27,677 nucleotides of DNA, from IMG/VR virus record IMGVR_UViG_3300035696_000009. One strand, 5' to 3'. The stretch's first letter is position 1, and each line of letters starts with the position of its first letter. The notes beneath the pieces were generated by a model, which saw nothing but the letters and a program-made list of their open reading frames with translations, did no database searches and was not told where the DNA came from. Positions 2,259 through 27,677 of the stretch are shown in pieces. Both the position numbers and the translations under genes were made by a program. This stretch comes from an uncultured virus (IMG/VR IMGVR_UViG_3300035696_000009). Taxonomy: Duplodnaviria > Heunggongvirae > Uroviricota > Caudoviricetes.

Positions 2259-2262
2259 GCCG

Positions 2263-5177: not shown

Positions 5178-5434
5178 CAATCGCCCTTCATCTCGTTGAA
5201 CGCGTCCGCGATCTCGCGCCAGCTCACGATGCTGTAGGCCGTGTGGAGCTTGCCGGGCGAGAGGTCCTTCATGTCGGGCGTGCCCTCCGGGAGCGTCTCG
5301 AGGACGAAGTCCTTCGCCTTCGCGGAGTTGAACTTGCCCCGGTAGTCAAGCACGGTGCGGTAGAGGCCCTCGTCGTTGCCGAACCATAAGGCGATGTTCC
5401 AGGTCTCCCAGTTCTTCCAACCCTGATAGGCCAT
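5177..5434 (-). CDS. Conserved phage protein (YxGWxNWETWNxALWxxNDEGLY family)
   Basis: Distinctive N-terminal motif; GGAGG RBS. Confidence 0.85.
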   Translation of the reverse strand: MAYQGWKNWETWNIALWFGNDEGLYRTVLDYRGKFNSAKAKDFVLETLPEGTPDMKDLSPGKLHTAYSIVSWREIADAFNEMKGD

Positions 5435-5447
5435 GACGGTTCCTCCG

Positions 5448-5476
5448 AGTCTACCGCCGCGGGGCCGGCCGGCCAA
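5448..5476 (-). promoter_or_regulatory. Sigma70-type promoter
   Basis: TTGGCC-17nt-TAGACT in intergenic gap. Confidence 0.6.
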
Positions 5477-8712: not shown

Positions 8713-9150
8713 TTAGAGGCCCTGGATCTTCGTGACGTTGTTCGTCGGGAAGTGGGCGACCATCTGGCCCTGGAGCCCGCGGCCGTTCGTGTTCGCGAGC
8801 GGGGGCGACCCGTCCTCGAGCTGGGCGCTCGGCGGCGCCGGCTGCGGGCGCGCCACCGCCACGTGCGGCGACGGCTGCGACGGCAGCCCGAGGGCCTGGC
8901 CGTCCGCGCACACCGTCTCGAGCCTGCAGATGCCGAAGCCCGCGAGCCTACCGGTCTCCTCGCGCGCGAGCTGCACCGCGAGGTCCTTGATGGTCTTGGC
9001 GTCGTTGTACTGGGTCGTGAAGCTCCCCGCGAGCCCCGGCAGGAGCCGGAAGAAGACGGCTTTGTCGGAGGCGTCTCGGGCAGCGGCGGGGACCGCTTCC
9101 GGCGGGGACGCTGTATTGGCCGAGGCCGCTTCTTTTTTGGTGTCGTCCAT
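8713..9150 (-). CDS. Hypothetical protein (MDDTKKEAAS...)
   Basis: AGGAG RBS before ATG 9150. Confidence 0.75.
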   Translation of the reverse strand: MDDTKKEAASANTASPPEAVPAAARDASDKAVFFRLLPGLAGSFTTQYNDAKTIKDLAVQLAREETGRLAGFGICRLETVCADGQALGLPSQPSPHVAVARPQPAPPSAQLEDGSPPLANTNGRGLQGQMVAHFPTNNVTKIQGL

Positions 9151-9224
9151 GGATCTTGCTCCTGCGCATCTCGGCTCCGCCGAGGATCTCACTCAACCGG
9201 CGTCCTAGTCCAATTCGTGAGAAA

Positions 9225-12443: not shown

Positions 12444-13025
12444 TCAGTCCGTGAGGTGGGCGACGTCGCCCGCGAGCTTGTGCGCCCAGTCCGCGATGGC
12501 GCGCTCGCGATCCTCCGGCGCCATGGCGGCGAGCAGGACCTCGCGCTCCGCGCTCGACGCCGCGGCCTGCGCCGCGAGTGCGCGCCTCTCCGCGCTCATG
12601 TCCTTGGCGTCCTCGACGAGCTTCGAAAGCTCCGGGCCCGGCGCCGCGCCGGGCAGGTTCTGGCGGTTCCTCTCGAAGACCTCGGCAATCACGGCCACGA
12701 CCTTCGACGACTCGAACTTCCCTCCCACGATCATCGTCTGGACGCCGGCCTTGCCGCTCCTCGTCATGCCCCGCAGCTCGAAGCGGACCTTCCACCGGTT
12801 CGGTTTGCCCGAGACGACGACGCGGAAGTCGGGCGTGAACCAGAAGACAAAATTCTCGCCGCGCGCGAGCAGCGCTTCGACGGCGTCGGCCTCCGGCCTG
12901 CCGAGCGCCACGGGGAAGAGCACGGGCCCCTCGGACCGCATGAAGCTGCCCTGGAGCTGCCATCTCGCGAGATCTTTGTCGTCGATGCGCGTCAAGCCGT
13001 CGGGGGAGAGGAGGTAGTTCTTCAT
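12444..13025 (-). CDS. Hypothetical protein (MKNYLLSPDG..., 193 aa)
   Basis: GGAG RBS; ATGA overlap with MTase stop. Confidence 0.8.
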   Translation of the reverse strand: MKNYLLSPDGLTRIDDKDLARWQLQGSFMRSEGPVLFPVALGRPEADAVEALLARGENFVFWFTPDFRVVVSGKPNRWKVRFELRGMTRSGKAGVQTMIVGGKFESSKVVAVIAEVFERNRQNLPGAAPGPELSKLVEDAKDMSAERRALAAQAAASSAEREVLLAAMAPEDRERAIADWAHKLAGDVAHLTD

Positions 13026-13735
13026 CCGGTCTCCGAAGATACATCGAGCGCGTGCATCGCGCAGCCGCTCTTCTCGACGAGCAGGCACCTCCGCTGCCCG
13101 ACCGCGAGGGCCGCGACCCCCGTCGAGCCGGAGCCCGCGAAGAGGTCGACGACGAGGTCGCCGGGTCTGCTCGAGGTCCTGATCATGATCTCGGCGAGCT
13201 TGGCCGGCTTCTCGGCCTTGTGGATCTTGCCCCGCAGAAGCTCGGTCACGTCGGTCCAGACGTTCGTGCGGCGCTTGTACGCGCTCTTGGCCGGGTACTT
13301 CTTGTTGTAGCCGGCGTAGCCGCGAAGCTCGTCTAGGAGCGGCACGTTGAACGTCTTGGGCTTGTCCCCTTTCACGAGCATCGCGACCTCCTCGCGCGTG
13401 AAGAGGTAGTTCGTCTGCACGCCGTACGCGCGCTTCTTGCCCCACGTGATGAGGTTGTGGAGGCGGAGGTCCGTCTGGTCTTCGACGGCCGCGAGCCACT
13501 TGAAGAACGGACGGTTCTTGTGCGTGCCGACGCCGCCCCACACGTACGCCGTGCCGCCGGCGGCGAGTAGGCCCTCCGCGAGGTGGCCGAGCCCGGCGTA
13601 GCACTCGTGGTCCCATTCCTCGTCGAGGATCTCGCCGTACGGCGGGTCGCAAATGAGGAGGTCGACCTTGCCGATGTGCTCCCGGAGGTCGACGTGGAAG
13701 CAGTCGCCGCGGATGACCTCGATGCTCGCCGTCAT
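13022..13735 (-). CDS. Orphan DNA N6-adenine/N4-cytosine methyltransferase, beta class
   Basis: GDC and DPPY (motif IV) precede HxxEKP and DLFAGSGST (motif I). Confidence 0.92.
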   Translation of the reverse strand: MTASIEVIRGDCFHVDLREHIGKVDLLICDPPYGEILDEEWDHECYAGLGHLAEGLLAAGGTAYVWGGVGTHKNRPFFKWLAAVEDQTDLRLHNLITWGKKRAYGVQTNYLFTREEVAMLVKGDKPKTFNVPLLDELRGYAGYNKKYPAKSAYKRRTNVWTDVTELLRGKIHKAEKPAKLAEIMIRTSSRPGDLVVDLFAGSGSTGVAALAVGQRRCLLVEKSGCAMHALDVSSETG

Positions 13736-13754
13736 GTCGCCGTCAGCGACTCTG

Positions 13755-14030
13755 TCACCGACGGTCGCGCTCGTCCAGCTCCCTCGTGAGATCATTCGTG
13801 CTCCTCTCGAGGTTCGCCTTGGCGCGCTTGCCGAAGAATCCCTTCGTGATCGCCCAGCCGGCGATCCCAACGGGCCAGAGCAGCATCCCGAAGACGAACT
13901 GGATGCCCACGTAGGCCGACTTCCTCGCTGGGCCGCGCAAGCTCCCCCAGGTTTCCCGATGCTCCGCGAAATCGATCATGCCGAGCCACCAGAAGACGCC
14001 GCAGAGGAAGTAGGAGGCGAGCCAGAACAC
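13755..14030 (-). CDS. Small membrane protein
   Basis: Two hydrophobic segments; LLWPV motif. Confidence 0.7.
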   Translation of the reverse strand: MFWLASYFLCGVFWWLGMIDFAEHRETWGSLRGPARKSAYVGIQFVFGMLLWPVGIAGWAITKGFFGKRAKANLERSTNDLTRELDERDRR

Positions 14031-16096: not shown

Positions 16097-16567
16097 TCAA
16101 CCGGAGGTGAGCGCCTGCATCGTCCGGATGTCCATCTCACCGGTCGTCTGGAGGCCGTTCTGGGCCTGGAAAGCGTGGATCGCGACCGAGGTAGAGCCTC
16201 CGGGGATGCCGTCGCCGGCGACCCCGAGCTGCCTCTGGATCTGGGCGATGATCCGGCGGTCGCCGTTCTGCCAGTGCGCGAGGAGCCACGCCGGGTAGAG
16301 GCTCCGGCGCGAGACGGGATCGAGACGCGGGTCGGTTCGCGGGTCGAGGTTGTAGGTCATCTGGCCCGGGAGCGCGGGCTCGAGTTGCGACGGGAGCTGG
16401 CCGGTCCAGTGGCCCGGGACGTACTTGTGACCGAGGAGCAGGGCGACGGCCAAGGCGCTCCCGCCGCCCCAGAGCACGCCCTCCCAGACGCTCTTCTTCT
16501 TCGCGTGCGTGATGAGCCCGCCGACGGCGGCTGCCAGGACCACGGGTGTTGGGTTCATCCTCTCCAT
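16097..16567 (-). CDS. Membrane-anchored peptidoglycan-binding (PG_binding_1-like) protein
   Basis: Two N-terminal TM helices; IQRQLGVAGDGIPGGSTSVAIHAFQAQNGLQTTG. Confidence 0.85.
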   Translation of the reverse strand: MERMNPTPVVLAAAVGGLITHAKKKSVWEGVLWGGGSALAVALLLGHKYVPGHWTGQLPSQLEPALPGQMTYNLDPRTDPRLDPVSRRSLYPAWLLAHWQNGDRRIIAQIQRQLGVAGDGIPGGSTSVAIHAFQAQNGLQTTGEMDIRTMQALTSG

Positions 16568-16637
16568 CTCGTCCACCTCTCGTTTGGAACAGTCTAGCGC
16601 AGCTCGGGCCGCGGCCTCGAATCCGCAGAATTCTTCC

Positions 16638-18086
16638 TCAGCCCCACCAGGGCAAATACGATTCTTCCGCGGCCCAATAGCCGCTCGACGCGTGCGCAGA
16701 AGCAGACCGATGGATCGGAGCCGCTGCCTTGCGCGACGTCGGCGCCGCGGCGCCCTGGCGGACCGCGAGCTGCCCGAGCCCGGCGCCGAGCATCCACACG
16801 TTCGCGTTGCCCTGGTTGTTGAACATCTTCGAGATGGCGTCGATCGTCGGCAGGTCCGTGAGCTTGCCCGCCTGGTATCCCTTGATGAACATCCCGCCCG
16901 CGGAGTTCTCGCCGAGGACCTTCTCGATCACGTGGGCTTCCTGGTCCCCGATCTTGTGGAACTTCTGCGCCTTCTTCAGGATGTTCGTCCAGATCCCCGT
17001 GTAGTCGAGGTGCTCCTTCTGGCCGGCCGCGATCTGCTGGCCGAGCGTGTCGACGCCCTGGCCGAGCGCCTGCATCGCCACCGGCGGAAGCTCCGTCCCG
17101 ATGGCCTCGCCGAGCCCCTTGTTCGCGACCGTGAGGATCATCTTCGCGATCGCGGCCACGGCCTTGCTGTTGTCGTTGCCCTGGAACGCGTCGTCCGCCA
17201 TCCCGGCGAGCGTGCCGAGGTACGGGGAGGCCTGCGAGAGCGCGGAGCCCACGGCCGCCGCGTAGCCGGTGAGCTGCATCGCGAAGCCGACGAGCTGCAG
17301 CGTCGACTGGAGGATCGACCCGAACTGGCCCGCGACGTCCTTGTCCCAGCTAAAACCTTCGCCGCCCCACCCCGGGTGCTCCCCCGCCTTGACGGGGCCC
17401 TTCCTCTCCCGCTCGATCGCCGCCGGGTCCTGCGTCTCCCACGTGTGCACGGACGGGTCGCGGAAATAGTAGTGGTTGTTCGGGTTGAGCAGGTTCTGCA
17501 GGTTCGCGCGATCGTACTCGACCATCTTCATCCGGTCGTGGTCGTAGTAGTAGATCCGGATCGGGTTCTTGTCGTAGCTCGGCTTCGGCAAGGCCCCGAG
17601 CTTCATGCGCCTGCCGATCGCCCCCTGCACGGCCTTGTCCATCTCGGCCCACGTCATGCGACCGCCGCCCTTCCTCCAGACGGGCGCGTTCTTGTTCTCG
17701 TAGGCCGCGATGAGCTGCGTCGGGTCGTAGTCCTCTTTCTGTTTGACCCCGAACGCGCTCTTGACCGCACCGTCGTCGACCCACGAGCGCGTGGCGTCGT
17801 CGTGGTAGTAGTCCGTCAGCACGGCGCGCGCCTGGGCGGCGGGGCTCGCGTTCGGGTTGAACGACGCCATGACCTCGATGGGGTGCGGCGGCGGGACCCA
17901 GCCCGCGAGCATCCGGCCTGCGCCGCCGCGCGAGTGGAGCCACGCGCCGCCGAGCGCCCCGAGGAGCGCGCCCGCCGCGACGGGTATGCCGTATTTCTCG
18001 CGCCGCGAGTGCGCGAGCGCGAGCGCGATGGCCGCGCCCACGATGCTCCCCCTCGCTGCGCTGTTCAGGACCGCGCCCCGCGCCAT
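16638..18086 (-). CDS. Large hypothetical protein with N-terminal glycine-zipper TM pair (482 aa)
   Basis: Long GC3-biased ORF; GALLGALGG helix; TAGACT 6 nt before ATG. Confidence 0.85.
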   Translation of the reverse strand: MARGAVLNSAARGSIVGAAIALALAHSRREKYGIPVAAGALLGALGGAWLHSRGGAGRMLAGWVPPPHPIEVMASFNPNASPAAQARAVLTDYYHDDATRSWVDDGAVKSAFGVKQKEDYDPTQLIAAYENKNAPVWRKGGGRMTWAEMDKAVQGAIGRRMKLGALPKPSYDKNPIRIYYYDHDRMKMVEYDRANLQNLLNPNNHYYFRDPSVHTWETQDPAAIERERKGPVKAGEHPGWGGEGFSWDKDVAGQFGSILQSTLQLVGFAMQLTGYAAAVGSALSQASPYLGTLAGMADDAFQGNDNSKAVAAIAKMILTVANKGLGEAIGTELPPVAMQALGQGVDTLGQQIAAGQKEHLDYTGIWTNILKKAQKFHKIGDQEAHVIEKVLGENSAGGMFIKGYQAGKLTDLPTIDAISKMFNNQGNANVWMLGAGLGQLAVRQGAAAPTSRKAAAPIHRSASAHASSGYWAAEESYLPWWG

Positions 18087-18146
18087 GGGGCCAGTCTATC
18101 GCATCTCGGCCGGGCACCCCTCATCGCCGAAAATCCGCGCGCCCGA

Positions 18147-18503
18147 TCATCTCCCCGCGTCCGGCGGCACCTTGATGGCTTCCGCGATCACATTCGCGAG
18201 GAGCTTGCGGTCTTCGGGCGAGAGGCGGACCTCGATCGGCTTCGGGCACCACTCGAGGCACTCGCGGTTGCCGTGGGCGAAGAGGTGATCTTCCTCGCGC
18301 CGCACGCACTCGCCCGGCTCACACTCGCGCGGGGGCGGGAGTTTGCACCAACCGAGCTGCACGAGCGCGAAGCACAAGATCGGGATGCCGACGAGGAGCC
18401 GCATCCCCGCGCAGTTCGGACACGAGATGGGGTCCGAGAACATGTCGTTGTGCTCGTGCTCGGGCTCGGGCTCGCGGCGCGTGTTTCTCCGGTACGGGCC
18501 CAT
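18147..18503 (-). CDS. Membrane-anchored Cys-rich protein
   Basis: TGATG overlap; PYR N-terminus; CPNC; TM helix. Confidence 0.7.
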   Translation of the reverse strand: MGPYRRNTRREPEPEHEHNDMFSDPISCPNCAGMRLLVGIPILCFALVQLGWCKLPPPRECEPGECVRREEDHLFAHGNRECLEWCPKPIEVRLSPEDRKLLANVIAEAIKVPPDAGR

Positions 18504-18697
18504 CACTCGCCCGGGAACTTGCACAAGTCGCGGTCGAGTCTCCGCCGCGCGCGCCGTAACCCCTTCTTCCGGCCCCACCGCCACATCGCGTGCCGCGCCT
18601 TGTCCCGGTAGCAGGGGATCATCCCGGCGTGCAGGCCGCGCCAGAGCGACATGCTCTCATGGTGCTTGGCCTGGTTGTAGCAGTGGCCGGCGCTCAT
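18503..18697 (-). CDS. Small basic hypothetical protein
   Basis: Immediately downstream of tmRNA; RRARRR motif. Confidence 0.6.
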   Translation of the reverse strand: MSAGHCYNQAKHHESMSLWRGLHAGMIPCYRDKARHAMWRWGRKKGLRRARRRLDRDLCKFPGE

Positions 18698-18725
18698 GCT
18701 CTGCTCTTTCCGCCGCTCTTCTTCA

Positions 18726-19103
18726 TGGTGGACCTGCCCGGTACTGCCCCGGGGTCCGCCGAGCCTTGTTCCCAGTCTTCTACGTGCGTAGTCGGATGAT
18801 CGGCTGCACCGACACAGGGGGATGCCGGGTTGCCTCGGCTACCTCCACCAGCGCAGTTTAGGGAGAGCGCGCTCCTGCCCGCTTGATCTCGCCATGGGTC
18901 GCGAGCGCTCCCCGTGGCCAAGCTCCCGTCGGGTTCACACCGGCCGAGGTACTGGAACACCTACTCGGCACGGCGGCTCAGGCTGCTTGCGCGGCCGGGG
19001 CGATTGCGTTGTCGTTCGCAATTACGGTTGCCCGCTTGGGTGGGGCGGGCGCCACTGCACGCTGACCAGGATCTCCTCTCGCCGTCGAATCTATTTCAGG
19101 CCC
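18726..19103 (-). ncRNA. ssrA: tmRNA (one-piece, 378 nt)
   Basis: 5' GGGCCTGAAATAGATTCGAC; 3' CAGGTCCACCA; 7-bp acceptor stem with G3.U70; T-arm CCCGG-GGCAGTA-CCGGG; pk1 GTGG/CCAC plus GCCCGC/GCGGGC; tag frame present. Confidence 0.97.
18978..19019 (-). other. tmRNA tag reading frame (A)ANDNAIAPAAQAA*
   Basis: GTAATT then GCG AAC GAC AAC...GCA GCC TGA. Confidence 0.92.
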
Positions 19104-19107
19104 GTGG

Positions 19108-19130
19108 GACGAGGGGAGAATCCCCTCGTC
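19108..19130. other. 10-bp perfect hairpin between tRNA and tmRNA
   Basis: GACGAGGGGA-gaa-TCCCCTCGTC. Confidence 0.8.
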
Positions 19131-19206
19131 GGTTGCGGACACCCGGAGTCGAACCGAGCCTTCACAAGCTTATGAGGCTTGTATGGAACCGCGCCACTCG
19201 TCCGCA
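19131..19206 (-). tRNA. Atypical tRNA with CAU anticodon (Met/fMet/Ile2 identity unresolved)
   Basis: TGCGGAC...GTCCGCA-A-CC; anticodon arm ACAAGC-CTCATAA-GCTTGT; T-arm CTCGG-TTCGACT-CCGGG; short D-arm. Confidence 0.85.
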
Positions 19207-19221
19207 TCAACGAGGGGAAGC

Positions 19222-19563
19222 CTAGCTCGGCTCGCCCTTGTCATCAACAGCGGCAGCCTCGGCCCGTCTCAACCGATCGGCTTTCCAGGCGTGCCCGATG
19301 CGCCTGTCGGGCGGCCTGTCCTTGAGCGCGTTCCTCAACCGGATCGCGACGTCCGAGGCCGTGACGGGCGTGCCGTTCTCACTCCTCGCGAGGCCGCGAT
19401 CGATCCCCGTGACGGTCACCGTTTGCCACTTGCCGTAGGCGTGCCTCGCGTGGATGTGCACCACGCCCGGCGACGCCCAGAAAGCCGCGACTTCGAGGTC
19501 CTTGAGCACGGTGCACCGGAGCACGCGGTGGACGAAGTCGAGGGCCTCGGCGCGCGCCGCCAT
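19222..19563 (-). CDS. Hypothetical protein
   Basis: Preceded by TGGACT-17-TAGTCG-7-ATG; stop 15 nt before tRNA. Confidence 0.7.
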   Translation of the reverse strand: MAARAEALDFVHRVLRCTVLKDLEVAAFWASPGVVHIHARHAYGKWQTVTVTGIDRGLARSENGTPVTASDVAIRLRNALKDRPPDRRIGHAWKADRLRRAEAAAVDDKGEPS

Positions 19564-19602
19564 CGTTCTTCGACTAGCTGCTCGCGCGCCGGGAGTCCAG
19601 CC

Positions 19603-19875
19603 TCAACGGCGTCTCTTTTTCTCCGGCCCGAGGATCGCGAAGCGGTGCCTGCCGCCGGCGAGGCGCGTGCCGCAACCGTCGCACGTCGTACGCGAGAACT
19701 CCTCCATGCCCTCGCCCGTCTCCGAGTCAAAGTCGGGCACGAGGTGCGGTCCGAGCGCGTTCACGCCCTTGACGACCCTCTTCTCGTCCTCGTCGGGGAT
19801 GCCCGACGTGTCGCCGTTGACCGCGTAGATCGTGCAGTCGTCGCAGAGCCAGAGGTCGTCCTGTACCACTCTCAT
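19603..19875 (-). CDS. Conserved phage Zn-binding protein
   Basis: GAGGAG RBS; CDDC...NG...FSxxxCDGCGxxLAGxR. Confidence 0.8.
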   Translation of the reverse strand: MRVVQDDLWLCDDCTIYAVNGDTSGIPDEDEKRVVKGVNALGPHLVPDFDSETGEGMEEFSRTTCDGCGTRLAGGRHRFAILGPEKKRRR

Positions 19876-19885
19876 CGTGATCTCC

Positions 19886-20140
19886 TCACGCGAAGCTGTC
19901 GCGCCGCACTTCCCGCTCACGCTCGCGCGTCGCCCACAAGAGGCCGGCCGCAGCGAGCCCCGCCACGAGGCCGATCGTCGCGTCCCGCTTGTGCCGCTCC
20001 CACGCCGCAAGCGCCTGGAGGTCGCGCTCGAGGAGGTGGTCCCGCGGGACGTCGGGCTTCCTGAGGACCGTGACCGCGAAGTAGCCGGTCCCCACGCCCG
20101 CGAAGAGCAGCGGGAGCATCGCGTCCTTCGGTAGCGTCAT
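19886..20140 (-). CDS. Small two-TM membrane protein
   Basis: Two hydrophobic helices; TTGCGG-17-GATGAT-6-ATG. Confidence 0.75.
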   Translation of the reverse strand: MTLPKDAMLPLLFAGVGTGYFAVTVLRKPDVPRDHLLERDLQALAAWERHKRDATIGLVAGLAAAGLLWATREREREVRRDSFA

Positions 20141-20187
20141 GGGCCCATCATCGCCCGGCCGCGGGGCGCCCGCAACTTCCGCAGAAC

Positions 20188-20679
20188 CTACCCGCCGTCG
20201 GGCGGCGGCGTGACGATGGGCTGGCCGCCGGGCTGCATCGCGCAGAGATCCTTGTACTCCTCGATCTGCCTCGTCGACACGTTGATCTTGTGCAGCTCGT
20301 CGATGTAGCGCTTGGCCACCATGAGCGAAAAGTCCACCGTCTGCGCGATGTCGAGCTTGGGCGCCGCGGAGAACTCGCTCTCCTTGATGGATTTGAGCGC
20401 GTCCTTCGTCAGTATCGAGACGAGCACGTTGATGGCGACCGAATTTATCTCTTGTTGATATTTGATACGGGCGCCGTGCGCGAGCAGGCGCTCCGTGTGG
20501 GCCTCCATCTCGCGGCGCTGCTGCTCCATCTCGCGGTTGTGCTTTTCGAGCGCCGCGGTCTCCGCCTTGAGCCTTTCGGCCTCGTCCTCGAAGGCGGCCC
20601 CGCGCTCGCGGATCGCCTCGGTCGTCTTCCTGTACGCCTCGAGCTGCTCCGGCGTCATGGGGCCCTCGTGCTGTTCCAT
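20188..20679 (-). CDS. Coiled-coil hypothetical protein
   Basis: E/R/K-rich heptads in N-terminal half. Confidence 0.8.
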   Translation of the reverse strand: MEQHEGPMTPEQLEAYRKTTEAIRERGAAFEDEAERLKAETAALEKHNREMEQQRREMEAHTERLLAHGARIKYQQEINSVAINVLVSILTKDALKSIKESEFSAAPKLDIAQTVDFSLMVAKRYIDELHKINVSTRQIEEYKDLCAMQPGGQPIVTPPPDGG

Positions 20680-20694
20680 CGCGCCGAGCTTACC

Positions 20695-21279
20695 TCAATT
20701 CGGCCCGCGGCGGTCCTCGGCCGGCGGCATCCCGAGCGGCATGGGCGGGTCCTCGAACCAGATCCAGTAGTGCACGTCGTTCGGGGGCGTCGTCTCGAAG
20801 GGCGTCTTGAGGGAGTCCGGCGGCGCGCCGACGGCGTACGCCATCTGCCCGAGGAAGCGCCAGTCCGCCTCCGTCGAGCTTCGCCCGCGCGGGTGGAGCG
20901 ACGCGGAGAAGATCCACTCGCGGCTGAGGAGCTGGTCGGCGCCGTGGGCCTTCGCCTCCTCGAGCATCCGGAGGAACTCGTCGTACGACGAGGGTTTGTT
21001 CTTGAACCCGAACTTGTCCATGACGGAGTCGCCGAGGCGCTCCCACACCTCGCGGGTGGGCGTCGGGACCGGCCCGTGCGACAGGCCGAACTTCCAGCCG
21101 CTCGCCACCCGGAAAGCTGGCGGGCCGCCGCCCTTCTTGCGGGTCAGCTCGGCCTCTTTCCGCATCGAGCTGGCGACGAGGTCCAGCGTCCGTGCGCTCG
21201 CATCCGCCGGGGCGAGCCCTCCCGGCTTCGTGTTTCCCGCCTTGCGCTCACGCTTCGTTTTGCGCTTCTCGCGCTTCAT
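20695..21279 (-). CDS. Hypothetical protein (194 aa)
   Basis: GC3 bias; packing. Confidence 0.75.
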   Translation of the reverse strand: MKREKRKTKRERKAGNTKPGGLAPADASARTLDLVASSMRKEAELTRKKGGGPPAFRVASGWKFGLSHGPVPTPTREVWERLGDSVMDKFGFKNKPSSYDEFLRMLEEAKAHGADQLLSREWIFSASLHPRGRSSTEADWRFLGQMAYAVGAPPDSLKTPFETTPPNDVHYWIWFEDPPMPLGMPPAEDRRGPN

Positions 21280-21286
21280 GCGTAGC

Positions 21287-21490
21287 TCACTCCCTCACGA
21301 GCCTGTACCGGTGGAGCTTGTAGTCGAACCGGTCGTAGTCGCCGCTCTTGAACATGGGGAACTCGGGCTCGCCCGTCCCATTGGGATCTGCGAACCAGAT
21401 GCGCCACTCTTTGCGCTCGCGGTCCCAGTAGAGGTAGACGTGGTCGCCCGGCGGCGCGTCGTCCTCGAATTTCGTCAAGCTGTTCGACAT
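21287..21490 (-). CDS. Hypothetical protein
   Basis: GC3 bias; packing. Confidence 0.7.
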   Translation of the reverse strand: MSNSLTKFEDDAPPGDHVYLYWDRERKEWRIWFADPNGTGEPEFPMFKSGDYDRFDYKLHRYRLVRE

Positions 21491-21499
21491 TCTTAGGCC

Positions 21500-21721
21500 T
21501 CAAGACTCGTAGAACTCAGCCACGGTCTCGAGGAGGGACTGCTCGACGGTCTCGCGCGGCGCGCCGTGCTTCGCCGCGAGCTTGATGCCCGTCTTCATGA
21601 GGAAGCCCGCGATGGTCCCGGCGCGCAGGACCTCGTCCATCCCCGGCGTGAGCTTCTTGGCGTTCTCGATCACACGCGCGAAGTTCGCGTCGAGGTACTC
21701 GTGGAGATCGAATTCCGGCAT
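21500..21721 (-). CDS. Hypothetical protein
   Basis: GAGG RBS. Confidence 0.75.
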   Translation of the reverse strand: MPEFDLHEYLDANFARVIENAKKLTPGMDEVLRAGTIAGFLMKTGIKLAAKHGAPRETVEQSLLETVAEFYES

Positions 21722-21728
21722 GCCGTCC

Positions 21729-22016
21729 TCACTTCTTCTTGGTGCACCGGCAGACGAGGTACCCGTCCTTCAGCTCTCCCGTCTGCTCTCCGTGCGAGCA
21801 TGACACGGCGCCGTGAGCGCCGTCGACGCTAATCACCTCCTCGCGGCAGGGCCTCCCGGCCTCGGCGCTCGCGTAGAAGGCGTGCCCGAACCAGCCCGCC
21901 GCGCACCCGATGAACGCGGCCGTCGCCATGATCGCCCAGAATCGCTTCATCGGTCCCATCCTCCTCGCCTTGTCGAGCAGCGCCCCCAAGCACGCGTTCC
22001 AGAGCAGCTCATTCAT
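21729..22016 (-). CDS. Membrane-anchored small Cys-containing protein
   Basis: TM helix followed by C..C..CxC. Confidence 0.7.
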   Translation of the reverse strand: MNELLWNACLGALLDKARRMGPMKRFWAIMATAAFIGCAAGWFGHAFYASAEAGRPCREEVISVDGAHGAVSCSHGEQTGELKDGYLVCRCTKKK

Positions 22017-22530
22017 CGCCCTTTCCCTCGTGGCGCTCGATGATGAACTCGGGCGCGCTCGGGCCTCGCCACCGCATGAGGGCGATCGCGACGTCTAGGT
22101 TCGACGGGAACCGGTCGTGGCGCCACGCGGTGCCGGCGAAGACCGGGCGGGGCGTGTGGTCGTTCATGTAGACCTGGACGACGTGCGCCCCGCCCGTCTG
22201 CTCGGGCTCGCACTCGTAGATCTTGCACCGCACGATCCTGGCCTTGCAGATCTCGTCCTGCGCGGCCCCGAGGTCCTCCTCGCCCTCGTCGAGGCCGAAG
22301 CCGATGTGGAGCCGGTCGTCGGGCTCCCCCGTCTCCTGGGCGCGCAGCTCCGCGAGCTGCTCGTCCGTGACCGGGAACCACCGGACGACCGGGCCGAGGT
22401 CCTTCGTCCCAGACCGGATGTAGACCCCGCACCGCGCGCACCTCGTGTCCGGGTGCTCGAGGAACCCGATGCTCTTGATCTCCGTCCGGAGCCTGGACGC
22501 GCACTCGTGGCAGACGAGGCGGAAGTTCAT
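22009..22530 (-). CDS. Hypothetical protein with N-terminal Zn finger
   Basis: CHEC...CARC; GGAG RBS. Confidence 0.75.
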   Translation of the reverse strand: MNFRLVCHECASRLRTEIKSIGFLEHPDTRCARCGVYIRSGTKDLGPVVRWFPVTDEQLAELRAQETGEPDDRLHIGFGLDEGEEDLGAAQDEICKARIVRCKIYECEPEQTGGAHVVQVYMNDHTPRPVFAGTAWRHDRFPSNLDVAIALMRWRGPSAPEFIIERHEGKGDE

Positions 22531-22691
22531 CGCGCTCCCCTGGGGAAAGGGAGCGCGAGCTGCGGGTCCGGCTCGCGGAGCAGGCGCTCGAACTCCAGGC
22601 GCTTCGCCCGGATCTCGTCCTCGATCTGGGAGATGCGCCGCGCGAGCTGGAGGAGCCGCTTCGCGCGCGACCGCCGCGGGTAGCGCTTCAT
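22527..22691 (-). CDS. 54-aa coiled-coil peptide ending QLALPF-PRGAR
   Basis: ATGA overlaps at both ends; below ORF-track cutoff. Confidence 0.75.
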   Translation of the reverse strand: MKRYPRRSRAKRLLQLARRISQIEDEIRAKRLEFERLLREPDPQLALPFPRGAR

Positions 22692-22981
22692 TTCTTCCCG
22701 CCCATGCCAGGGAGCACTTCGCTCTTGTGCCTGGCGACGAAGTCGCGCCCGAAGCGCGTCTTGCCGATCACGTAGTCGGCCTCAGGGTTTCCGGGGGCGG
22801 GCGTGACGCTCACCGGGTTTCCCTGGTTCCAGTCCTCGAGCGTCTCGCCCTTCCAGTACATCTCGGGGTCGAGGTCGTCGCCCAACTCCTCGAGCACGTC
22901 GTTCACCTCGTCCTCGCTCTCGGCCTCCACCGTGAGCGTGACCGTCTTGTGCAGGCGCATCTCGATCTTGAACGTCGGCAT
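22688..22981 (-). CDS. Hypothetical protein (TVEAESEDE motif)
   Basis: GAGG RBS; acidic. Confidence 0.75.
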   Translation of the reverse strand: MPTFKIEMRLHKTVTLTVEAESEDEVNDVLEELGDDLDPEMYWKGETLEDWNQGNPVSVTPAPGNPEADYVIGKTRFGRDFVARHKSEVLPGMGGKK

Positions 22982-22992
22982 CGCGGGTCCCC

Positions 22993-23175
22993 TCAGTCGT
23001 CGTCGGGCAGCGAGCTGATGAGGGACTCGCGCTCCCTCGCCAGCCAGTCGATGTGTTTCTGGATCAGCTTGGCCTCGCCCGGGCTGAGGGTCACGCTCTT
23101 GTGCTTCTTCGCGGCCTTCGCGAGCTTGTCGAGCGCCCTGCACTCGTCTTCGATGTCGTCGAGCAGCGTCGTCAT
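22993..23175 (-). CDS. Hypothetical protein
   Basis: GGAG RBS; ATGA overlap. Confidence 0.75.
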   Translation of the reverse strand: MTTLLDDIEDECRALDKLAKAAKKHKSVTLSPGEAKLIQKHIDWLARERESLISSLPDDD

Positions 23176-23483
23176 GATCGGCTCCGCTGCTCCTCGTTCT
23201 TCTTGGCGGCCTCGCACTTCTTGTCCTCGCGCTCGCGCGCTTTCTTGTCGAGCGCGGCGACGAGGCACGCAATGCCGCAGAAGTCCGAGGCGCGGTCGAT
23301 GTAGTCGGACACAAAGCCCGAGCACTCCCCGGGCCCCTGCGCGAACACGCCCGTCGCGCGCGAGATGTGGACGCGCTCGAGGATGTGCTCGGTGCCGCCG
23401 AGGCTGATCCAGCCCCGGTGCTCGTTGGGGTTCTCGACTTTCCTCCCGCAGTGGTCGCACGTCGTCATCGTGATCTGTCCCAT
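23172..23483 (-). CDS. Treble-clef-like Zn-finger protein
   Basis: AGGAGG RBS; CDHC...DFCGIAC. Confidence 0.75.
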   Translation of the reverse strand: MGQITMTTCDHCGRKVENPNEHRGWISLGGTEHILERVHISRATGVFAQGPGECSGFVSDYIDRASDFCGIACLVAALDKKAREREDKKCEAAKKNEEQRSRS

Positions 23484-23491
23484 GGGTCCTC

Positions 23492-23731
23492 CTAGTCTAC
23501 GACTCTCCGGCGCCTCGTCCGGCGCCTCTCGCGCTTGCGCATGAACGGCTCGATCTCCGCGTCGCCGGGGAAGAACTGCTTGCCGGCGTTCCTGCACTGG
23601 CTCGGCGTGCCGTCCGCGTGTTTCCTCTTGTGCCAGAACTCCGCGGCGCCCATCGGCTCGCAGTCGTCCATCACCATGCCGCAGCGGCGGCACACGGCCC
23701 TCTCTCCGCGGTCGGGGAGCCGCATCGTCAT
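23492..23731 (-). CDS. Small Zn-binding protein with Arg tail
   Basis: CRRC..H..C; ATGA overlap. Confidence 0.7.
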   Translation of the reverse strand: MTMRLPDRGERAVCRRCGMVMDDCEPMGAAEFWHKRKHADGTPSQCRNAGKQFFPGDAEIEPFMRKRERRRTRRRRVVD

Positions 23732-24561
23732 GGCGGGAACTTCCCGGGATCGGGATCGCCGTCGTCTGCGAAGGGATCGTCCTCGGCGTCCAGCACCATC
23801 TCCGCGTGCACGACGACCTTCTTCTCGGACTTCCGCGGCTTCGGTCGCGGTCTGCGCACGTAGCGCTTGCTCTCGACCTCGACGACCCATTCGAGCGGGG
23901 GCGCGAGCCAGCATTTCCGGTCGAGGAGGGCCGCGTGCCGCGCCGCTTTGAGCAGCGCCCGCATGAGCGCGAGCCCGGCCTCCGTGGGGTCCCTCCGGAC
24001 GGCGTCCTTGGCCCTCGCGACAATGATCCACGGGAGGCTCTCGGCCTCCTTCCATTCTCTCGCCGTGATCCCGACGAGGAGCGTCGAGACGATCCGCTTC
24101 TTCGACGAGGCGTGGACGTCCGACGTGATGTGGTGGACCGGGGCGCTGGCTGGGACGACGGGCTTGTCGGGATCCATGTAGCCCGCGCGGCGGAGGAGCG
24201 TCTCGATCGAGTCGATCTTCATAGCCTGCTCGCTGAGCTGGCGCTCCTTGCCGGATTTCTTCCCGCGGACGCGGAATTTCCGGCCCGTGTACTCCCACGC
24301 GGACCACGAGCGCTGCCCCATGCAGAGCTGCCGCTGGAACCGGCCGCGCGCGAGGCTGTAGAGCCAGCGCCACGCGGCCTTGTCGAAGATGAGCATGTAG
24401 GACGAGAGCTGAAGCTCGCGGACGCGCGACAGGCGCATCTCGAGCTGGTTGCACTCGCGGAGCGCCTTGTGGAACTCCGCTGCCGGGAGCGGCGTGCTCG
24501 CGGGCCCGACGGCGACCTTGGGCGGCGACGCGAACGCGTCGAGCACGATCGCGGTGCTCAT
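23728..24561 (-). CDS. Basic hypothetical protein (277 aa)
   Basis: ATGA overlaps; GC3 bias. Confidence 0.75.
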   Translation of the reverse strand: MSTAIVLDAFASPPKVAVGPASTPLPAAEFHKALRECNQLEMRLSRVRELQLSSYMLIFDKAAWRWLYSLARGRFQRQLCMGQRSWSAWEYTGRKFRVRGKKSGKERQLSEQAMKIDSIETLLRRAGYMDPDKPVVPASAPVHHITSDVHASSKKRIVSTLLVGITAREWKEAESLPWIIVARAKDAVRRDPTEAGLALMRALLKAARHAALLDRKCWLAPPLEWVVEVESKRYVRRPRPKPRKSEKKVVVHAEMVLDAEDDPFADDGDPDPGKFPP

Positions 24562-24761
24562 GGCTTTGGCCGCCTTGGTTCCTCCGCCTGATCTCCGACC
24601 GCCCGCCCGAGGAGCACTGCGAGTTCCGCGGGCGTGCACCCTGCGTCCATGGGTTCGCCCCTGACGAGCACCACGAGCTTGACCTCGTGGATCTCCGCGA
24701 GCGTGGCGAAAGCTTGCATCGCTCCGAGGATCTTGCGCGCGCGATCGGCGTTCACGCTCAT
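24558..24761 (-). CDS. Hypothetical protein
   Basis: ATGA overlaps at both ends. Confidence 0.65.
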   Translation of the reverse strand: MSVNADRARKILGAMQAFATLAEIHEVKLVVLVRGEPMDAGCTPAELAVLLGRAVGDQAEEPRRPKP

Positions 24762-25321
24762 CGGTCCGCCGAGAAGATGAGGTCGTGCGAGACGATCTCC
24801 GTGCGCTCCTCGACGAGCCTGCACCCGAGGAGCTTCGGCCTATGGTCCCACGGTTTGATCGGCGGCAGGGCCGTGAACCTCTTGCTGCGCTCGACAAGCG
24901 TGCGCAGCTCCGCGTCCGTGGGTTTGCGCGAGAGGAAGATGGCGACCGAGTTGTACGCGGCGTGCTTCGGCTCCTTGCCGGGCTTGAGCTTGCTCACGTT
25001 GCCCATCCCGTCGTTCGAGTAGCCCGGCGTCGGGGCCAGCCCCATCGGCGCGCGGCAGACCGCGTCGTCGCCGTGGTCGTCGACGCGCGTCGTGACGAGG
25101 TCCTCGAACGGGTCCTCCCTCTCGAAGTGCCCGCGGACGCCACGGCCGCGGACCTCCTTCTCGAACATCTCCCTGTACGGCCCCCCGCGGTGGTCGCCGT
25201 GCTCGTCGCAGCGCCCGACGACGAAGCTCGAAAGCTCGCGCTCGAAGTTGCCGGCGTAGGAGTCCATATCGACAACGAACGCCCACCGCGGCCCGCGGTC
25301 CGCCCACTCCCAGAGCGCCAT
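24758..25321 (-). CDS. Conserved phage protein (DxDSYAGNFERE family)
   Basis: Motifs FVVDMDSYAGNFERE and YNSVAIF; TGATG overlap. Confidence 0.8.
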   Translation of the reverse strand: MALWEWADRGPRWAFVVDMDSYAGNFERELSSFVVGRCDEHGDHRGGPYREMFEKEVRGRGVRGHFEREDPFEDLVTTRVDDHGDDAVCRAPMGLAPTPGYSNDGMGNVSKLKPGKEPKHAAYNSVAIFLSRKPTDAELRTLVERSKRFTALPPIKPWDHRPKLLGCRLVEERTEIVSHDLIFSADR

Positions 25322-25521
25322 CAGAGCCTCTGCCTCTCCTCGTCCCAGGACTTCATGACGCGCTCGACCTGGTCCCTGAAGGAGTCGCGCGCGGCGACGA
25401 GCGCGAGAACGACCCGCGCGTCGAGCTGCACGGTCCCGAAGTGCATGTCCGTGTGGTCTCGGATCCAGTCCTTCCACTCGGGGAGCGTGGAGTCTTCGGT
25501 CGGGGCTTTGGTGGTCGTCAT
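25321..25521 (-). CDS. Hypothetical protein
   Basis: Overlaps at both ends. Confidence 0.7.
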   Translation of the reverse strand: MTTTKAPTEDSTLPEWKDWIRDHTDMHFGTVQLDARVVLALVAARDSFRDQVERVMKSWDEERQRL

Positions 25522-25736
25522 GGGCTGCCGTCCTTCGCCGCTCCGGGCAGGCACCGGAGCGGCACGTCGCGCATCGGGTACGAGGCGAAGCTCGCGCATG
25601 GCCACGTTCTCTGGTGCTCGTCGCGCGCCTCGGCCATCACCCAGTGCATCCAATACCAGAGCACCATCGCCCCGATCCCGCCCATCACCGAGAGCGTGAG
25701 CCAGACCTTCCTCCGGAACTCGGCGTCGAGCTTCAT
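25518..25736 (-). CDS. Single-TM small protein
   Basis: TM helix; WPC...VPLRC; ATGA overlaps. Confidence 0.7.
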   Translation of the reverse strand: MKLDAEFRRKVWLTLSVMGGIGAMVLWYWMHWVMAEARDEHQRTWPCASFASYPMRDVPLRCLPGAAKDGSP

Positions 25737-26407
25737 CGCGTCTCGGGCGAGCTGTGGTGCGTGCAGCCCTCTTTGGCCGGCGGCCAGTCGAGCCCGAAAT
25801 CCTTCCGGCGTATCTTCGCGCGCGGCGCGCCATCCAGCCAGAACACGATCCCCTCGATCGGCGCGGCCGAGAGGTACGCGCGCATGCCCTCGAACGTCCG
25901 CTCGAACTTGCCCGGCTCGATCACGACGGAGCCGTGCTTGATGAACTCGTCCTCCGCGAGGGCCTGGGGGTTTCCCTGGAGGTGCGGGCCGCAGAGTTCG
26001 TACGTCCCGGGTTCGAGCGGCTGCTTGAGGCGCAGGTACGCCTCGCGCGCCCATTTGTCCTCGGGCCCGTCCATGACGAGGACCCAGTGCGGCCAATGCC
26101 CGGTCGTCTTGTCCGGCTCGTCGCACGGGATGCCGCCGGCCGGCGGGGGCTTGCCCCCCTTCGCGTCGTAGCGCTTGTAGAGGAAATTGTTCGAGCGGAG
26201 GAGCAGCGGGACCCAGGCCATGTGGATGCCGTTGCCCGGGCCCGCGATGACGGCGCACGCGGTCCCGTCGAACTTCACGGTCGCGATGCCCTCGGCCATC
26301 ACGCGCTCAACGCCGGGGGTGAAGTCCGGTTTGAGTATGGCCTCGTTGCCGCGGCCCTTTTTACGCGGGACGAAATCCCGCTGGAACACGCACTGTATCT
26401 TCTTCAT
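25733..26407 (-). CDS. ATP-dependent RNA ligase, DUF5565/RLIG1(C12orf29)-like
   Basis: MKKIxCVF start; nucleotidyltransferase motifs I (ATVKFDGTAC), III (GTYELCGP), IV (IEGIVFW), V (AKIRR); GHWPHWV and QGNP; GAGGAG RBS. Confidence 0.8.
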   Translation of the reverse strand: MKKIQCVFQRDFVPRKKGRGNEAILKPDFTPGVERVMAEGIATVKFDGTACAVIAGPGNGIHMAWVPLLLRSNNFLYKRYDAKGGKPPPAGGIPCDEPDKTTGHWPHWVLVMDGPEDKWAREAYLRLKQPLEPGTYELCGPHLQGNPQALAEDEFIKHGSVVIEPGKFERTFEGMRAYLSAAPIEGIVFWLDGAPRAKIRRKDFGLDWPPAKEGCTHHSSPETR

Positions 26408-26628
26408 GTGATCTCCTCGGGAATACCGTTCGGGTACGCGACCGTCCGGCCGTGCTCCGGGTCGAACTCCCAGACGCCGCCCTCGTAGACGGGCTCCCAG
26501 TCGCCGGCCATCGACTCGGGCACCGCCATCCACCACCAGCGCCGGTGGTCTCCGCGCTCGCGGATCGCGTCCCGCCTGACCTCGCGCATCTCGCGCCTGA
26601 ACGCGTGCTTCTCCCTGCGGCGCTTCAT
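26404..26628 (-). CDS. Hypothetical protein
   Basis: GGAG RBS; ATGA overlap. Confidence 0.65.
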   Translation of the reverse strand: MKRRREKHAFRREMREVRRDAIRERGDHRRWWWMAVPESMAGDWEPVYEGGVWEFDPEHGRTVAYPNGIPEEIT

Positions 26629-26768
26629 GGCTTCTCCGTCCTCGCGCGCTCGCGCTTCTTCGTCTGCCTGTCGAGGTGCCCGACCCAGGCCCACGCCGCG
26701 CCGCCGCCGAGGACGAGCAGGACGAGGGCTACGCCCGCGACGACGTCGCCGATCGTGTAGACGAGCAT
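26625..26768 (-). CDS. Small single-TM protein (47 aa)
   Basis: GAGG RBS; TGATG overlap; hydrophobic helix plus basic tail. Confidence 0.7.
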   Translation of the reverse strand: MLVYTIGDVVAGVALVLLVLGGGAAWAWVGHLDRQTKKRERARTEKP

Positions 26769-26965
26769 CAAGTCCTCGGTTCCTTTGGCGGCACGCTCGT
26801 GATGGTCACGGTGTTGCGCACCTTCAGCTCGGGGATCGTCTTGCACCCCTCGTCGTGCTCGGTCCCCCACGAGCCGCCCGTGAAGAACCTCTCGGCGCAC
26901 GCGCCGCACGTGAGGTCGTAGCCGATGTTCCCGCACGCGATGATGGCGTCCTCGTCGCTCAACAT
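26768..26965 (-). CDS. Small Cys-containing protein (MLSDEDAIIAC...CGAC)
   Basis: ATG 2 nt after upstream stop. Confidence 0.7.
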   Translation of the reverse strand: MLSDEDAIIACGNIGYDLTCGACAERFFTGGSWGTEHDEGCKTIPELKVRNTVTITSVPPKEPRT

Positions 26966-26967
26966 GC

Positions 26968-27144
26968 TCAGTCCCTCGGGTCCGGCGAGCAGCTCAAGCA
27001 GTAGTTGCGACCCGACCAGTCGGGCTCGTCGATCGGGACATGGCAAGCGCGGCAGAAGCTCTCGAGCACTTCCTCGCGCTCGTCTTCCGTCAATGAGCGG
27101 AGCAGCTCGACCGCTTTTTTCGCTCTGTCCGTCGACATCATCAT
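26968..27144 (-). CDS. 58-aa Zn-finger protein (FCRAC...YCLSC)
   Basis: ATGA overlap; below ORF-track cutoff. Confidence 0.7.
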   Translation of the reverse strand: MMMSTDRAKKAVELLRSLTEDEREEVLESFCRACHVPIDEPDWSGRNYCLSCSPDPRD

Positions 27145-27677
27145 TTCTCGTACTCCATGCCGAACTTACGCTGCATCTCGAACCACTCGTCGTCGCCGAG
27201 GATCTCGTCCTCGCCTTCCCCCTCGCGGTGGTGGGACACGAGGCTCGACGGGTAGCGTCCCTTGGGCTCGGGGCCGAGGATCCTGCTCGAGTCCGCGTAC
27301 GGCAGGACCATCCGATCCATGCGCGCCGTCTCGTGGCGCACGACGTGGAGGCGGTAACCCTCGCCGTCAGCGGCCATGACGAGGGCGCTGCCGCGGCCCG
27401 ACGCGAGCGCCGTCTCGATCGCGTCCCGGAGCTGCGCGAGCGCGCGGGCGTCGCCGACGATGAACGCCTCGTCGTGCCACTGCTCTTGCGCGTAGACGTG
27501 CACGACCCCGAAGGGGTCGGGCTGGGCCCCGTGGAGCGAAGGCGACTTGGGCACGACCCCGAAGGGGTCGGGCTGGGCCCCGTGGAGCGAAGGCGACTTG
27601 GGCACGACCCCGAAGGGGTCGGGCTGGGCCCCGTGGAGCGAAGGCGACTTGGGCACGACCCCGAAGGGGTCGGGCTG
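27141..27677 (-). CDS. Conserved phage hypothetical protein with N-terminal 17-aa repeats, 5'-truncated
   Basis: HVYAQxxWHDEAFIVG...LRDAI...DGEGY motif; frame open to window edge. Confidence 0.75.
   Translation of the reverse strand, partial: QPDPFGVVPKSPSLHGAQPDPFGVVPKSPSLHGAQPDPFGVVPKSPSLHGAQPDPFGVVHVYAQEQWHDEAFIVGDARALAQLRDAIETALASGRGSALVMAADGEGYRLHVVRHETARMDRMVLPYADSSRILGPEPKGRYPSSLVSHHREGEGEDEILGDDEWFEMQRKFGMEYEK
27500..27677. repeat. Perfect 51-bp tandem repeat, about 3.5 copies, running off the window
   Basis: Identical units start at 27500, 27551, 27602 and 27653; each contains hairpin CGACCCC-GAA-GGGGTCG. Confidence 0.97.

Follow-up and report, generated by a model that had tools for sequence, protein, structure and literature searches.

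What is a stand-alone RNA ligase for in a phage-like genome that also encodes, on the same strand and some kilobases downstream, a tRNA and a transfer-messenger RNA (tmRNA)? The question is raised by a stretch of 27,677 nucleotides (nt) from an uncultured virus (IMG/VR record IMGVR_UViG_3300035696_000009), which we refer to as the window, and by one of its genes, P0001 (Table 1). The original prediction, made from the sequence alone, took the product of P0001 for an RLIG1/DUF5565-like RNA ligase and joined it with the tRNA and the tmRNA into a single candidate translation-rescue system. We suggest that the two parts of this proposal fare differently. As judged from its sequence and predicted structure, the P0001 product is an RNA ligase of the RLIG1/C12orf29 family, in the form of about 190-220 amino acids (aa) found in bacteria and viruses, and we think it probable that this minimal enzyme serves to reseal RNAs that are cut during infection.

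The assignment to RLIG1 was reached by three routes, namely profile, motifs and fold. The protein matches phrog_14301 ('RNA ligase') at E 5.4e-46, and a profile built from 46 homologs matches PDB 9c6l, the RLIG1 of Yasminevirus, at E 7e-20 over a span that runs from motif I to motif V. No change is seen among the 46 aligned homologs in motif I (K45-F-D47-G48, 'KFDG', aligned with TAKTDGT of 9c6l), nor in E137 of motif III, E185-G186 of motif IV and K198 of motif V, the motifs that had been recognised at the outset, nor in R79 of motif Ia and H158 of motif IIIa. The full invariant set comprises K45, D47, G48, R79, D81, A82, K83, H104, P106, H107, W108, E137, G140, H158, G159, E185, G186, V188, K198, R201 and D203. 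All six catalytic positions of the RLIG1 family are present in P0001: K45/D47, R79, E137, H158, E185 and K198 align to K73/D75, R89, E174, H195, E240 and K253 of the Yasminevirus enzyme, residues whose mutation reduces its adenylation and ligation (Hu et al., 2024; PMC11494293). The AlphaFold2 model (pLDDT 92.9, pTM 0.86) has a single domain, only the disordered tail of residues 218-224 falling below pLDDT 50. The 224-aa model has no OB domain, in agreement with what had been read from the sequence, nor does any further domain follow at its C-terminus. Foldseek with this model found the RLIG1 fold, chains of 9c6l and 9c6m filling its top ten rows (E 1.9e-9 to 2.9e-8, TM 0.62-0.66; best row 9c6m_A, E 1.9e-9, TM 0.65), with a Naegleria RNA ligase as the next family in the list (E 0.17). 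The Rnl1 family PF09511 gave no match at E<=1.

The open reading frame (ORF) was confirmed as real, with its ATG at 26407. A GTG at 26536 would lengthen it, but the MKK(I) N-terminus that corresponds to the ATG is the start of all 46 aligned homologs, and we therefore take the ATG as the true start. It has GAGGAG, as ribosome-binding site, 5 nt on its 5' side and shares an ATGA with the stop codon of the ORF upstream. The G+C content at third codon positions (GC3) of the ligase frame is 0.80, in a window of 67.7% G+C.

The nucleotidyltransferase core is common to RNA and DNA ligases, and entries for DNA ligase III do turn up low in the Foldseek ranking (E 1.5-1.8), which would leave room for a sealer of DNA or hybrid nicks in phage genome replication or repair. 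We regard this as most improbable: RNA ligases alone make up the best matches by structure and by profile, an OB or DNA-binding domain is lacking from the protein, and the RLIG1 family is reported to need RNA substrates with 5'-phosphate (5'-P) and 3'-hydroxyl (3'-OH) ends (PMC11494293).

P0001 has a large family around it. A search of 5.8 billion proteins yielded 1004 candidate clusters, of which 894 are relatives at E<=1e-3, many with PF17720 and most of a size of 185-220 aa. Relatives occur in 108 species genomes, none closer than 52%, and tblastn found homologs in 24 phage records (14 Mycobacterium, 5 Ralstonia, 2 Cellulophaga, 1 Burkholderia, 1 'Bacteriophage sp.' and 1 uncultured phage), the closest in an isolated phage being 45.8% identical in protein sequence; megablast of window positions 18000-27677 against 50,697 phage records gave no match. 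An insertion of about 20 aa after motif I, at residues ~56-75, is found only in the clade of the window (P0001-P0014) among the aligned proteins. Most of the 24 phage records annotate their homolog as 'RNA ligase' (gp78 of Mycobacterium phage Gengar and gp057 of Cellulophaga phage phi10:1 among them), and a phage RLIG1 has been tested with tRNA halves as substrate; there is hence nothing new in the ligase itself, and P0001 is a divergent addition to a phage and bacterial RLIG1 group that has already been described and partly assayed.

Hu et al. (2024) solved the structure of the minimal Yasminevirus RLIG1 and reported that bacterial, 'C. phage', human and Yasminevirus RLIG1 join tRNA-Lys halves with 5'-P/3'-OH ends, and that tunicate and acorn-worm homologs likewise autoadenylate and ligate 5'-P/3'-OH RNA (PMC11494293). 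Their main text and the supplement text searched do not say which phage 'C. phage' stands for. That viral RLIG1 might counter tRNA-cutting defences is a prediction already in print, in the Discussion of that paper.

By the chemistry of the family, ATP would adenylylate K45, the AMP would be transferred to the 5'-phosphate end of an RNA, and the 3'-OH end would then attack the activated 5' end and seal the break. The substrates may be RNAs of host or phage that have been cut by RNase-based host defences or by toxins, tRNA anticodon loops in particular. As a sealing-only enzyme, the ligase would act directly on 5'-P/3'-OH ends, which are those that metal-dependent nucleases leave. Breaks with 2',3'-cyclic phosphate and 5'-OH ends would require RtcB or a healing enzyme, whether supplied by the host or by a gene elsewhere.

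We note that the genes beside relatives of the ligase bear directly on this proposal. The collection consisted of 161 loci (one from an isolate phage, L001, 80 viral and 80 from metagenomes), to which 80 loci from species genomes were later added. In 11 of the 161 loci, spread over three ligase clusters (nine loci in a large gut-type clade, plus L015 and L084), RtcB is found at a distance of 205-620 nt from the ligase, and one metallophosphoesterase family lies 64-713 nt from it in seven viral or metagenome loci. Metallophosphoesterase matches recur in 19 of the 80 species-genome loci, within 17-700 nt of the ligase in eight and at 17 nt in four. RlaP (PF10127) abuts the ligase in L159; a Chloroflexota metagenome-assembled genome (MAG) carries RLIG1-like, Rnl1-type and RtcB ligases in a row (L238:5001-8309); in a Moraxella locus, a PIN-domain gene follows the RLIG1-like ligase after 0.3 kb; and a Chryseobacterium island (L275:82-10113) holds a tRNA array together with RNaseH-like, R2K ATP-grasp, RNase_T, cREC_REC, Rnl2, RLIG1-like, Metallophos_2 and TROVE genes, the gene set of Chryseobacterium islands including either TROVE or Band_7. 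Since the neighbours thus include RtcB, metallophosphoesterases, Rnl1 and Rnl2, RlaP, cREC, TROVE and tRNA arrays, RNA repair is supported as a role of the family, and from this analysis of gene contexts repair in the conflict between host and virus is likely to be the role of the ligase, and is the best supported of those considered. RNA repair is also said to have a 'syntax', set out by Burroughs and Aravind in Nucleic Acids Research in 2016. The make-up of the neighbourhoods is that found in the RNA-repair literature (PMC7824862; PMC8421152, the latter for RtcB with tRNA L-arrays), and Iyer et al. (2021) describe jumbo phages that pair tRNA provisioning with RNA-repair ligases (PMC7824862).

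Two of these relatives are embedded in tRNA operons. In Albitalea terrae (L231:2864-5639) an intact ligase ORF follows the 17th tRNA by 22 nt and precedes the 18th by 16 nt, with RtcR at a distance of 0.8 kb. A contig of a Clostridiales MAG (L221:694-7439) has an intact ligase ORF between 17 upstream and 8 downstream tRNAs, 25 in total; in both genomes, the ligase is therefore probably co-transcribed with the tRNAs. Such an arrangement would also suit an enzyme of phage RNA processing, one that joins the exons of RNAs that are split or contain introns, circularises RNA or 5'-adenylylates (AppN-caps) RNAs with a 5'-phosphate, for instance tRNAs. Human RLIG1 does make Ap2N-capped RNA in vitro, full-length tRNAs being among the capped species, yet in human cells it is reported to stand behind only about 20% of such caps (PMC13598233). 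The tmRNA of the window is complete and in one piece, its tRNA needs no joining, and the neighbours of the ligase elsewhere are of the repair type (RtcB, phosphoesterases, RlaP, exonucleases). We consider a role in RNA processing unlikely.

Resealing of cut RNAs has its own difficulties, and the following points weigh against it. The identification of P0001 as RLIG1 draws on profile, motifs and predicted fold, with the enzymology taken from homologs, and a single-sequence scan with PF17720 reaches 24.5 bits, where the cut-off is 25, and covers no more than residues 131-212 (the precomputed protein table lists PF17720.8 for P0001). It is general enzymology that suggests metal-dependent nucleases as the relevant attackers. 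An end-healing enzyme, RtcB or RlaP was found neither in the 27.7-kb window nor in the 15 ORFs of the 8.7 kb past its right end; relatives of the ligase have a second enzyme (RtcB or metallophosphoesterase) next door, and none was identified here. RtcB is likewise absent from all five whole phage records with the ligase that we examined (Gengar, phi10:1 and three viral contigs, 101-299 kb long, of which two have a completeness rating of 100%), as is an AAA_33 kinase above cut-off, from which it would follow that many phages carry the ligase alone. P0121, the conserved partner of the ligase described below, belongs to no recognisable catalytic family. The phage origin of the contig appears from PHROG matches and gene layout only, and no structural hallmark gene was seen in the contig sequence read. 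Lastly, the frequency of tRNA genes near the ligase is not above that of a control family. With lineages defined by single linkage at 70% identity among loci with >=4 kb on both sides, and with the P0121 family as the control accessory gene family, tRNA within 5 kb was found in 8 of 33 ligase lineages and 3 of 25 control lineages (Fisher p=0.32), and arrays of >=2 tRNAs in 4 of 33 and 2 of 25 (p=0.69).

Table 1. Features of the window that are discussed in the text (positions count from the first letter of the window).
Feature	Position	Strand	Support
P0001, RLIG1/C12orf29-family minimal ATP-dependent RNA ligase, 224 aa	25733..26407	(-)	profile, motifs, fold
orf96, 96 aa, no family, first gene of the operon	26404..26694	(-)	no Pfam or PHROG match
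predicted 72-aa ORF with one hydrophobic helix, VWLTLSVMGGIGAMVLWYWMHWVMA	25518..25737	(-)	sequence reading, in the listed frame 25518..26258; putative coding status
orf66 (P0122), 66 aa, no family	25321..25521	(-)	no Pfam match at E<=1
P0121, phrog_23621 protein, 187 aa, last gene of the operon	24758..25321	(-)	PHROG E 8.9e-22
atypical tRNA-Met(CAU), anticodon CAT in DNA	19131..19206	(-)	ARAGORN
one-piece tmRNA	18726..19103	(-)	Rfam RF00023, 66.6 bits against a cut-off of 47, E 4e-24, model 1-374 complete

The two RNA genes with which the original prediction had linked the ligase are real, and the distance of about 6.5 kb given for them holds: 6,527 nt separate the ligase stop from the tRNA on the same strand, and the tRNA lies 27 nt upstream of the tmRNA. 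The oddness noticed in the tRNA was borne out as well. Although called by ARAGORN, it is not listed by the Rfam tRNA model, whether at the gathering threshold or at E<=1, and for that reason we term the gene atypical; inspection by eye shows U1-A72 at the acceptor end, CUCAUAA in the anticodon loop and a surplus nucleotide where the T-arm joins the acceptor. The tag frame of the tmRNA, read by eye from the alignment, is ANDNAIAPAAQAA. ARAGORN misses this genuine tmRNA, which Rfam calls, and Rfam was therefore used for all tmRNA counts. In L041, ARAGORN called a tmRNA that overlaps with ordinary tRNAs; this call was set aside.

Might the ligase, the atypical tRNA(CAU) and the tmRNA nonetheless be one co-evolved rescue system, in which the ligase repairs, the tRNA replaces or decoys, and the tmRNA frees stalled ribosomes? 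The three genes share a strand and lie within 7.7 kb, and their order recurs in L083, a contig with a ligase 83% identical to P0001, whose tmRNA differs in the tag frame by silent changes only. The phage Lacusarx is reported to have a 'translation takeover' region with tRNAs, a tmRNA and the RNA ligase RtcB (PMC5648845), and the two genomes with a ligase inside a tRNA array point the same way. On the other side, at least 17 unrelated co-directional ORFs without known function lie between the ligase and the RNA genes, and L084, with a ligase 77% identical, has no tRNA in the 6.7 kb downstream of it. Rfam found a tmRNA in none of 22 ligase loci outside the clade of the window and in none of the five whole records, and an SmpB-like gene was not seen among the 58 window ORFs (Pfam), nor was a Pnk-like kinase/phosphatase (PHROGs, Pfam), the latter as the original prediction had stated. 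L083 is the only other case of the ligase-tRNA-tmRNA order and a close relative, and we therefore ascribe the repetition to shared ancestry. As for tRNAs, all five whole records encode them (1, 4, 9, 12 and 3), mostly far from the ligase, and tRNA within 5 kb in 54 of 80 viral loci is an unrepresentative count, since 50 of the tRNA-bearing loci form part of one 54-locus clade. Co-location of tRNA with the ligase recurs, but has not been shown to exceed background, and as a statistically supported trait of the family it was dropped, given the control. The lack of co-occurrence that the original prediction had named among its grounds of refutation thus applies to the tmRNA; for tRNA it is partly countered by the five whole records, all of which encode them. 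A single rescue system thus seems doubtful to us, and this part of the original prediction is not upheld, whereas its reading of the ligase as an agent of RNA repair fits the family neighbourhoods of other lineages. The tie between ligase, tRNA and tmRNA is one of theme, the support of translation being common to this genome; functional coupling is not demonstrated.

A closer association is found in the immediate surroundings of the ligase. On the minus strand, orf96, the ligase, the 72-aa ORF, orf66 and P0121 follow one another in this order with an ATGA overlap at every junction: the ATG of the 72-aa ORF overlaps the ligase stop, and orf66 overlaps both the 72-aa ORF and the P0121 gene. This suggests that the five genes of the operon, in which the 72-aa ORF would be a membrane protein, are translationally coupled. 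Among the loci collected, orf96 is found only in the window's own contig. P0121, in contrast, is the gene downstream of the ligase that is common to the window's own record (L082), L083 (79% identity) and L084 (72% identity), and its relatives form 65 clusters, many from contigs of 200-280 kb.

What P0121 does is harder to say. Its AlphaFold2 model (pLDDT 91.0) has a ferredoxin-like alpha/beta core, and searches with sequence and structure returned little: P0121 and six relatives have no Pfam match at E<=1, its profile has none in PDB at E<=10, its model has no Foldseek match at E<=1e-3 (E>=0.12), VIA reached at best Z 5.5 (with ACT, MgtC-C and RAMP-like ferredoxin folds), below the stated noise level of 7-8, and the ESM Atlas gave no usable feature match and structure matches of TM<=0.44. 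A 'cRec' phosphoesterase has been linked to RNA ligases and to nicotinamide adenine dinucleotide (NAD) systems by Iyer et al. (2021; PMC7824862), and we considered P0121 as a cREC protein (PF20274); a 45-sequence profile aligned to the cREC protein L275:3551-3922, which itself matches PF20274 at E 1.7e-23, with an hhalign probability of 0.2%, and there was no Pfam match. A Macro-type Adpp phosphatase was rejected too, for it has no Pfam support and the fold searches do not rise above noise.

The relatives of P0121 nevertheless raise the possibility that the ligase and its partner take part in NAD- or ADP-ribose-linked chemistry, for example by clearing what 2'-phosphate removal or NAD depletion produces, the ligase adenylylating something other than RNA. 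In phages GAP31 (Cronobacter; L162, 5983-6516) and 4MG (L167), and in L195, a NARP1-type operon has a P0121 homolog flanked by its PRPP-synthetase-like and NAMPT-like genes, and OGFr_N, NAD kinase and NUDIX genes are found near relatives of P0121. A phosphoribosyltransferase lies 1.3 kb downstream of the ligase in L084, and the ORF next downstream of the ligase in L221 reads like a sirtuin by eye. The slot that P0121 homologs occupy is the position of a Macro-domain phosphatase in the NARP1 operons of other phages, where it is the published extra gene (10.64898/2026.01.28.702374), but P0121 and its family have no Macro match, nor does P0121 have one to cREC. None of the 35 viral loci with P0121 relatives has an RLIG1-like gene within 4 kb; P0121 was accordingly rejected as a general companion of RLIG1-like ligases, and we take the pairing to be confined to the clade of the window. 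Moreover, all RLIG1 homologs tested are reported to ligate RNA (PMC11494293). We therefore hold a role in NAD chemistry to be very unlikely, and return to RNA repair.

The two closest relatives were recovered in the metagenome scan, on contigs of about 9 kb. In L083, a tRNA(CAT) at 8807-8879, 5.3 kb downstream of the ligase, has diverged in its body from that of the window while keeping the CTCATAA anticodon loop, and the tmRNA that follows (8907-9221, ~330 nt up to the contig end) is ~90% identical, the silent changes in the tag frame numbering two. In L084, the ligase is preceded at 205 nt by an RtcB gene (1-1404 (+), PF01139 E 2.9e-85) whose 5' part is cut off by the end of the contig, and ligases for both chemistries of RNA ends are thus adjacent. 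Directly upstream of the L083 ligase there is instead an 885-aa major-vault-protein-like gene (34-2691 (+); MVP_shoulder E 1.9e-26, Vault_3 E 4.2e-9) without counterpart in the other loci collected, whereas the window has small ORFs only on this side.

The conserved partner also permits a bolder version of the repair proposal, a Pnk-independent module for RNA protection in which the RLIG1-type sealer would work with the phrog_23621 protein as a new end-healing enzyme or as a cofactor that presents RNA, while the phage tRNA(CAU) and the tRNA-like domain of the tmRNA, as its preferred substrates, would serve as decoys for host tRNA nucleases and be resealed. We offer this 'decoy and repair' arrangement as a conjecture that we think improbable.

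As to the setting, the contig is phage-like and at least 219 kb long, and the ligase operon lies in an accessory arm of it whose genes share one strand. L082, the window's own record as recovered in the metagenome scan, has 218,816 bp. The minus strand carries nearly all plausible genes of the window, and family matches are scarce (10 of 58 ORFs for PHROG and 4 of 58 for Pfam, at E<=1e-3). Among the few other ORFs with a family are an N6_N4 DNA methyltransferase (13022-13870 (-); PF01555, E 1.6e-25), a protein with a C-terminal PG_binding_1 domain (16097-16576 (-); E 6.9e-8) and a DUF7249 protein (5177-5476 (-)). A 210-aa ORF without family occupies 27141-27677 (-) of the window and continues to L082:8635; its N-terminal part holds tandem 17-aa units, PKSPSLHGAQPDPFGVV, with at least three copies in the window. 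Outside the window, about 6 kb upstream of the ligase, there is an HD_4 phosphohydrolase (L082:3205-3957 (+); PF13328 E 4.5e-15, phrog_990 E 2.8e-37), and a PadR regulator is found at L082:6816-7130. The HD_4 family is better known from (p)ppGpp hydrolases, for which reason this protein was not counted as an end-healing enzyme; it may be an alarmone hydrolase instead.

That RLIG1 is an RNA ligase has been known only since 2023-2024, and there is as yet no agreement on its natural substrates. Because its relatives are found with RtcB, Rnl1 and Rnl2, phosphoesterases, RlaP, cREC, TROVE and tRNA operons, our analysis argues that the repair of broken tRNA-like RNAs in host-virus conflict may have been the ancestral job of the family. 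The phage and bacterial homologs are small, readily purified and ready for the bench, where a role in repair can be put to the test. For the window itself, the annotation is corrected to a real ligase within a five-gene operon, linked to tRNA and tmRNA by theme, and its conserved partner of phrog_23621 is seen to occur inside phage NAD-reconstitution operons as well.

It remains to set this ligase beside the systems that it recalls. As a phage trans-translation module, the combination of tmRNA and ligase is met here and in L083 only, out of the loci and records counted above. Relatives of P0001 in RNA-repair islands and long tRNA arrays sit with RtcB, Rnl1 or Rnl2, metallophosphoesterase, RlaP, cREC, TROVE, Band_7 and RtcR, none of which is adjacent to the ligase in the window; in the cyanobacterial L-arrays, the array-linked ligase is RtcB and not an RLIG1-like enzyme (PMC8421152). 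With the Rnl1 and Pnk of T4, which carry out repair against the anticodon nuclease PrrC, the ligase would have in common a phage origin and the sealing step with ATP, lysyl-AMP and 5'-P/3'-OH ends, and RLIG1 has been superposed on T4 Rnl1 with a root-mean-square deviation of 4.83 A over 136 residues (PMC11494293). P0001 differs from T4 Rnl1 in having neither a match to PF09511 nor the C-terminal tRNA-binding domain, and from the T4 pair in that the 58 ORFs of the window and the 15 of the next 8.7 kb include no Pnk.

The resemblance is closer with the phages of PHROG 14301, that is, Gengar (gp78) and other Kratiovirus, phi10:1 (gp057) and the Ralstonia jumbo phages RP12 and RP31, whose ligases are 34-46% identical to P0001 over 85-100% of the length and sit, like it, among small accessory genes; to these the clade of the window adds its insertion and the phrog_23621 partner, and the Gengar and phi10:1 records are without a tmRNA. 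The likeness to Yasminevirus sp. GU-2018 RLIG1 (9C6L/9C6M) and human RLIG1/C12orf29 (PF17720) is one of profile, fold and the six catalytic positions, and the nucleotidyltransferase domain likewise stands alone, with neither an RNA-binding nor an OB domain beside it. P0001 is about 21% identical to the Yasminevirus protein and shorter, with 224 aa against 277 aa, human RLIG1 having about 325 aa. In contrast to both, P0001 would be encoded by a bacterial virus, and it carries, after motif I, the insertion of some 20 aa that marks its own clade.

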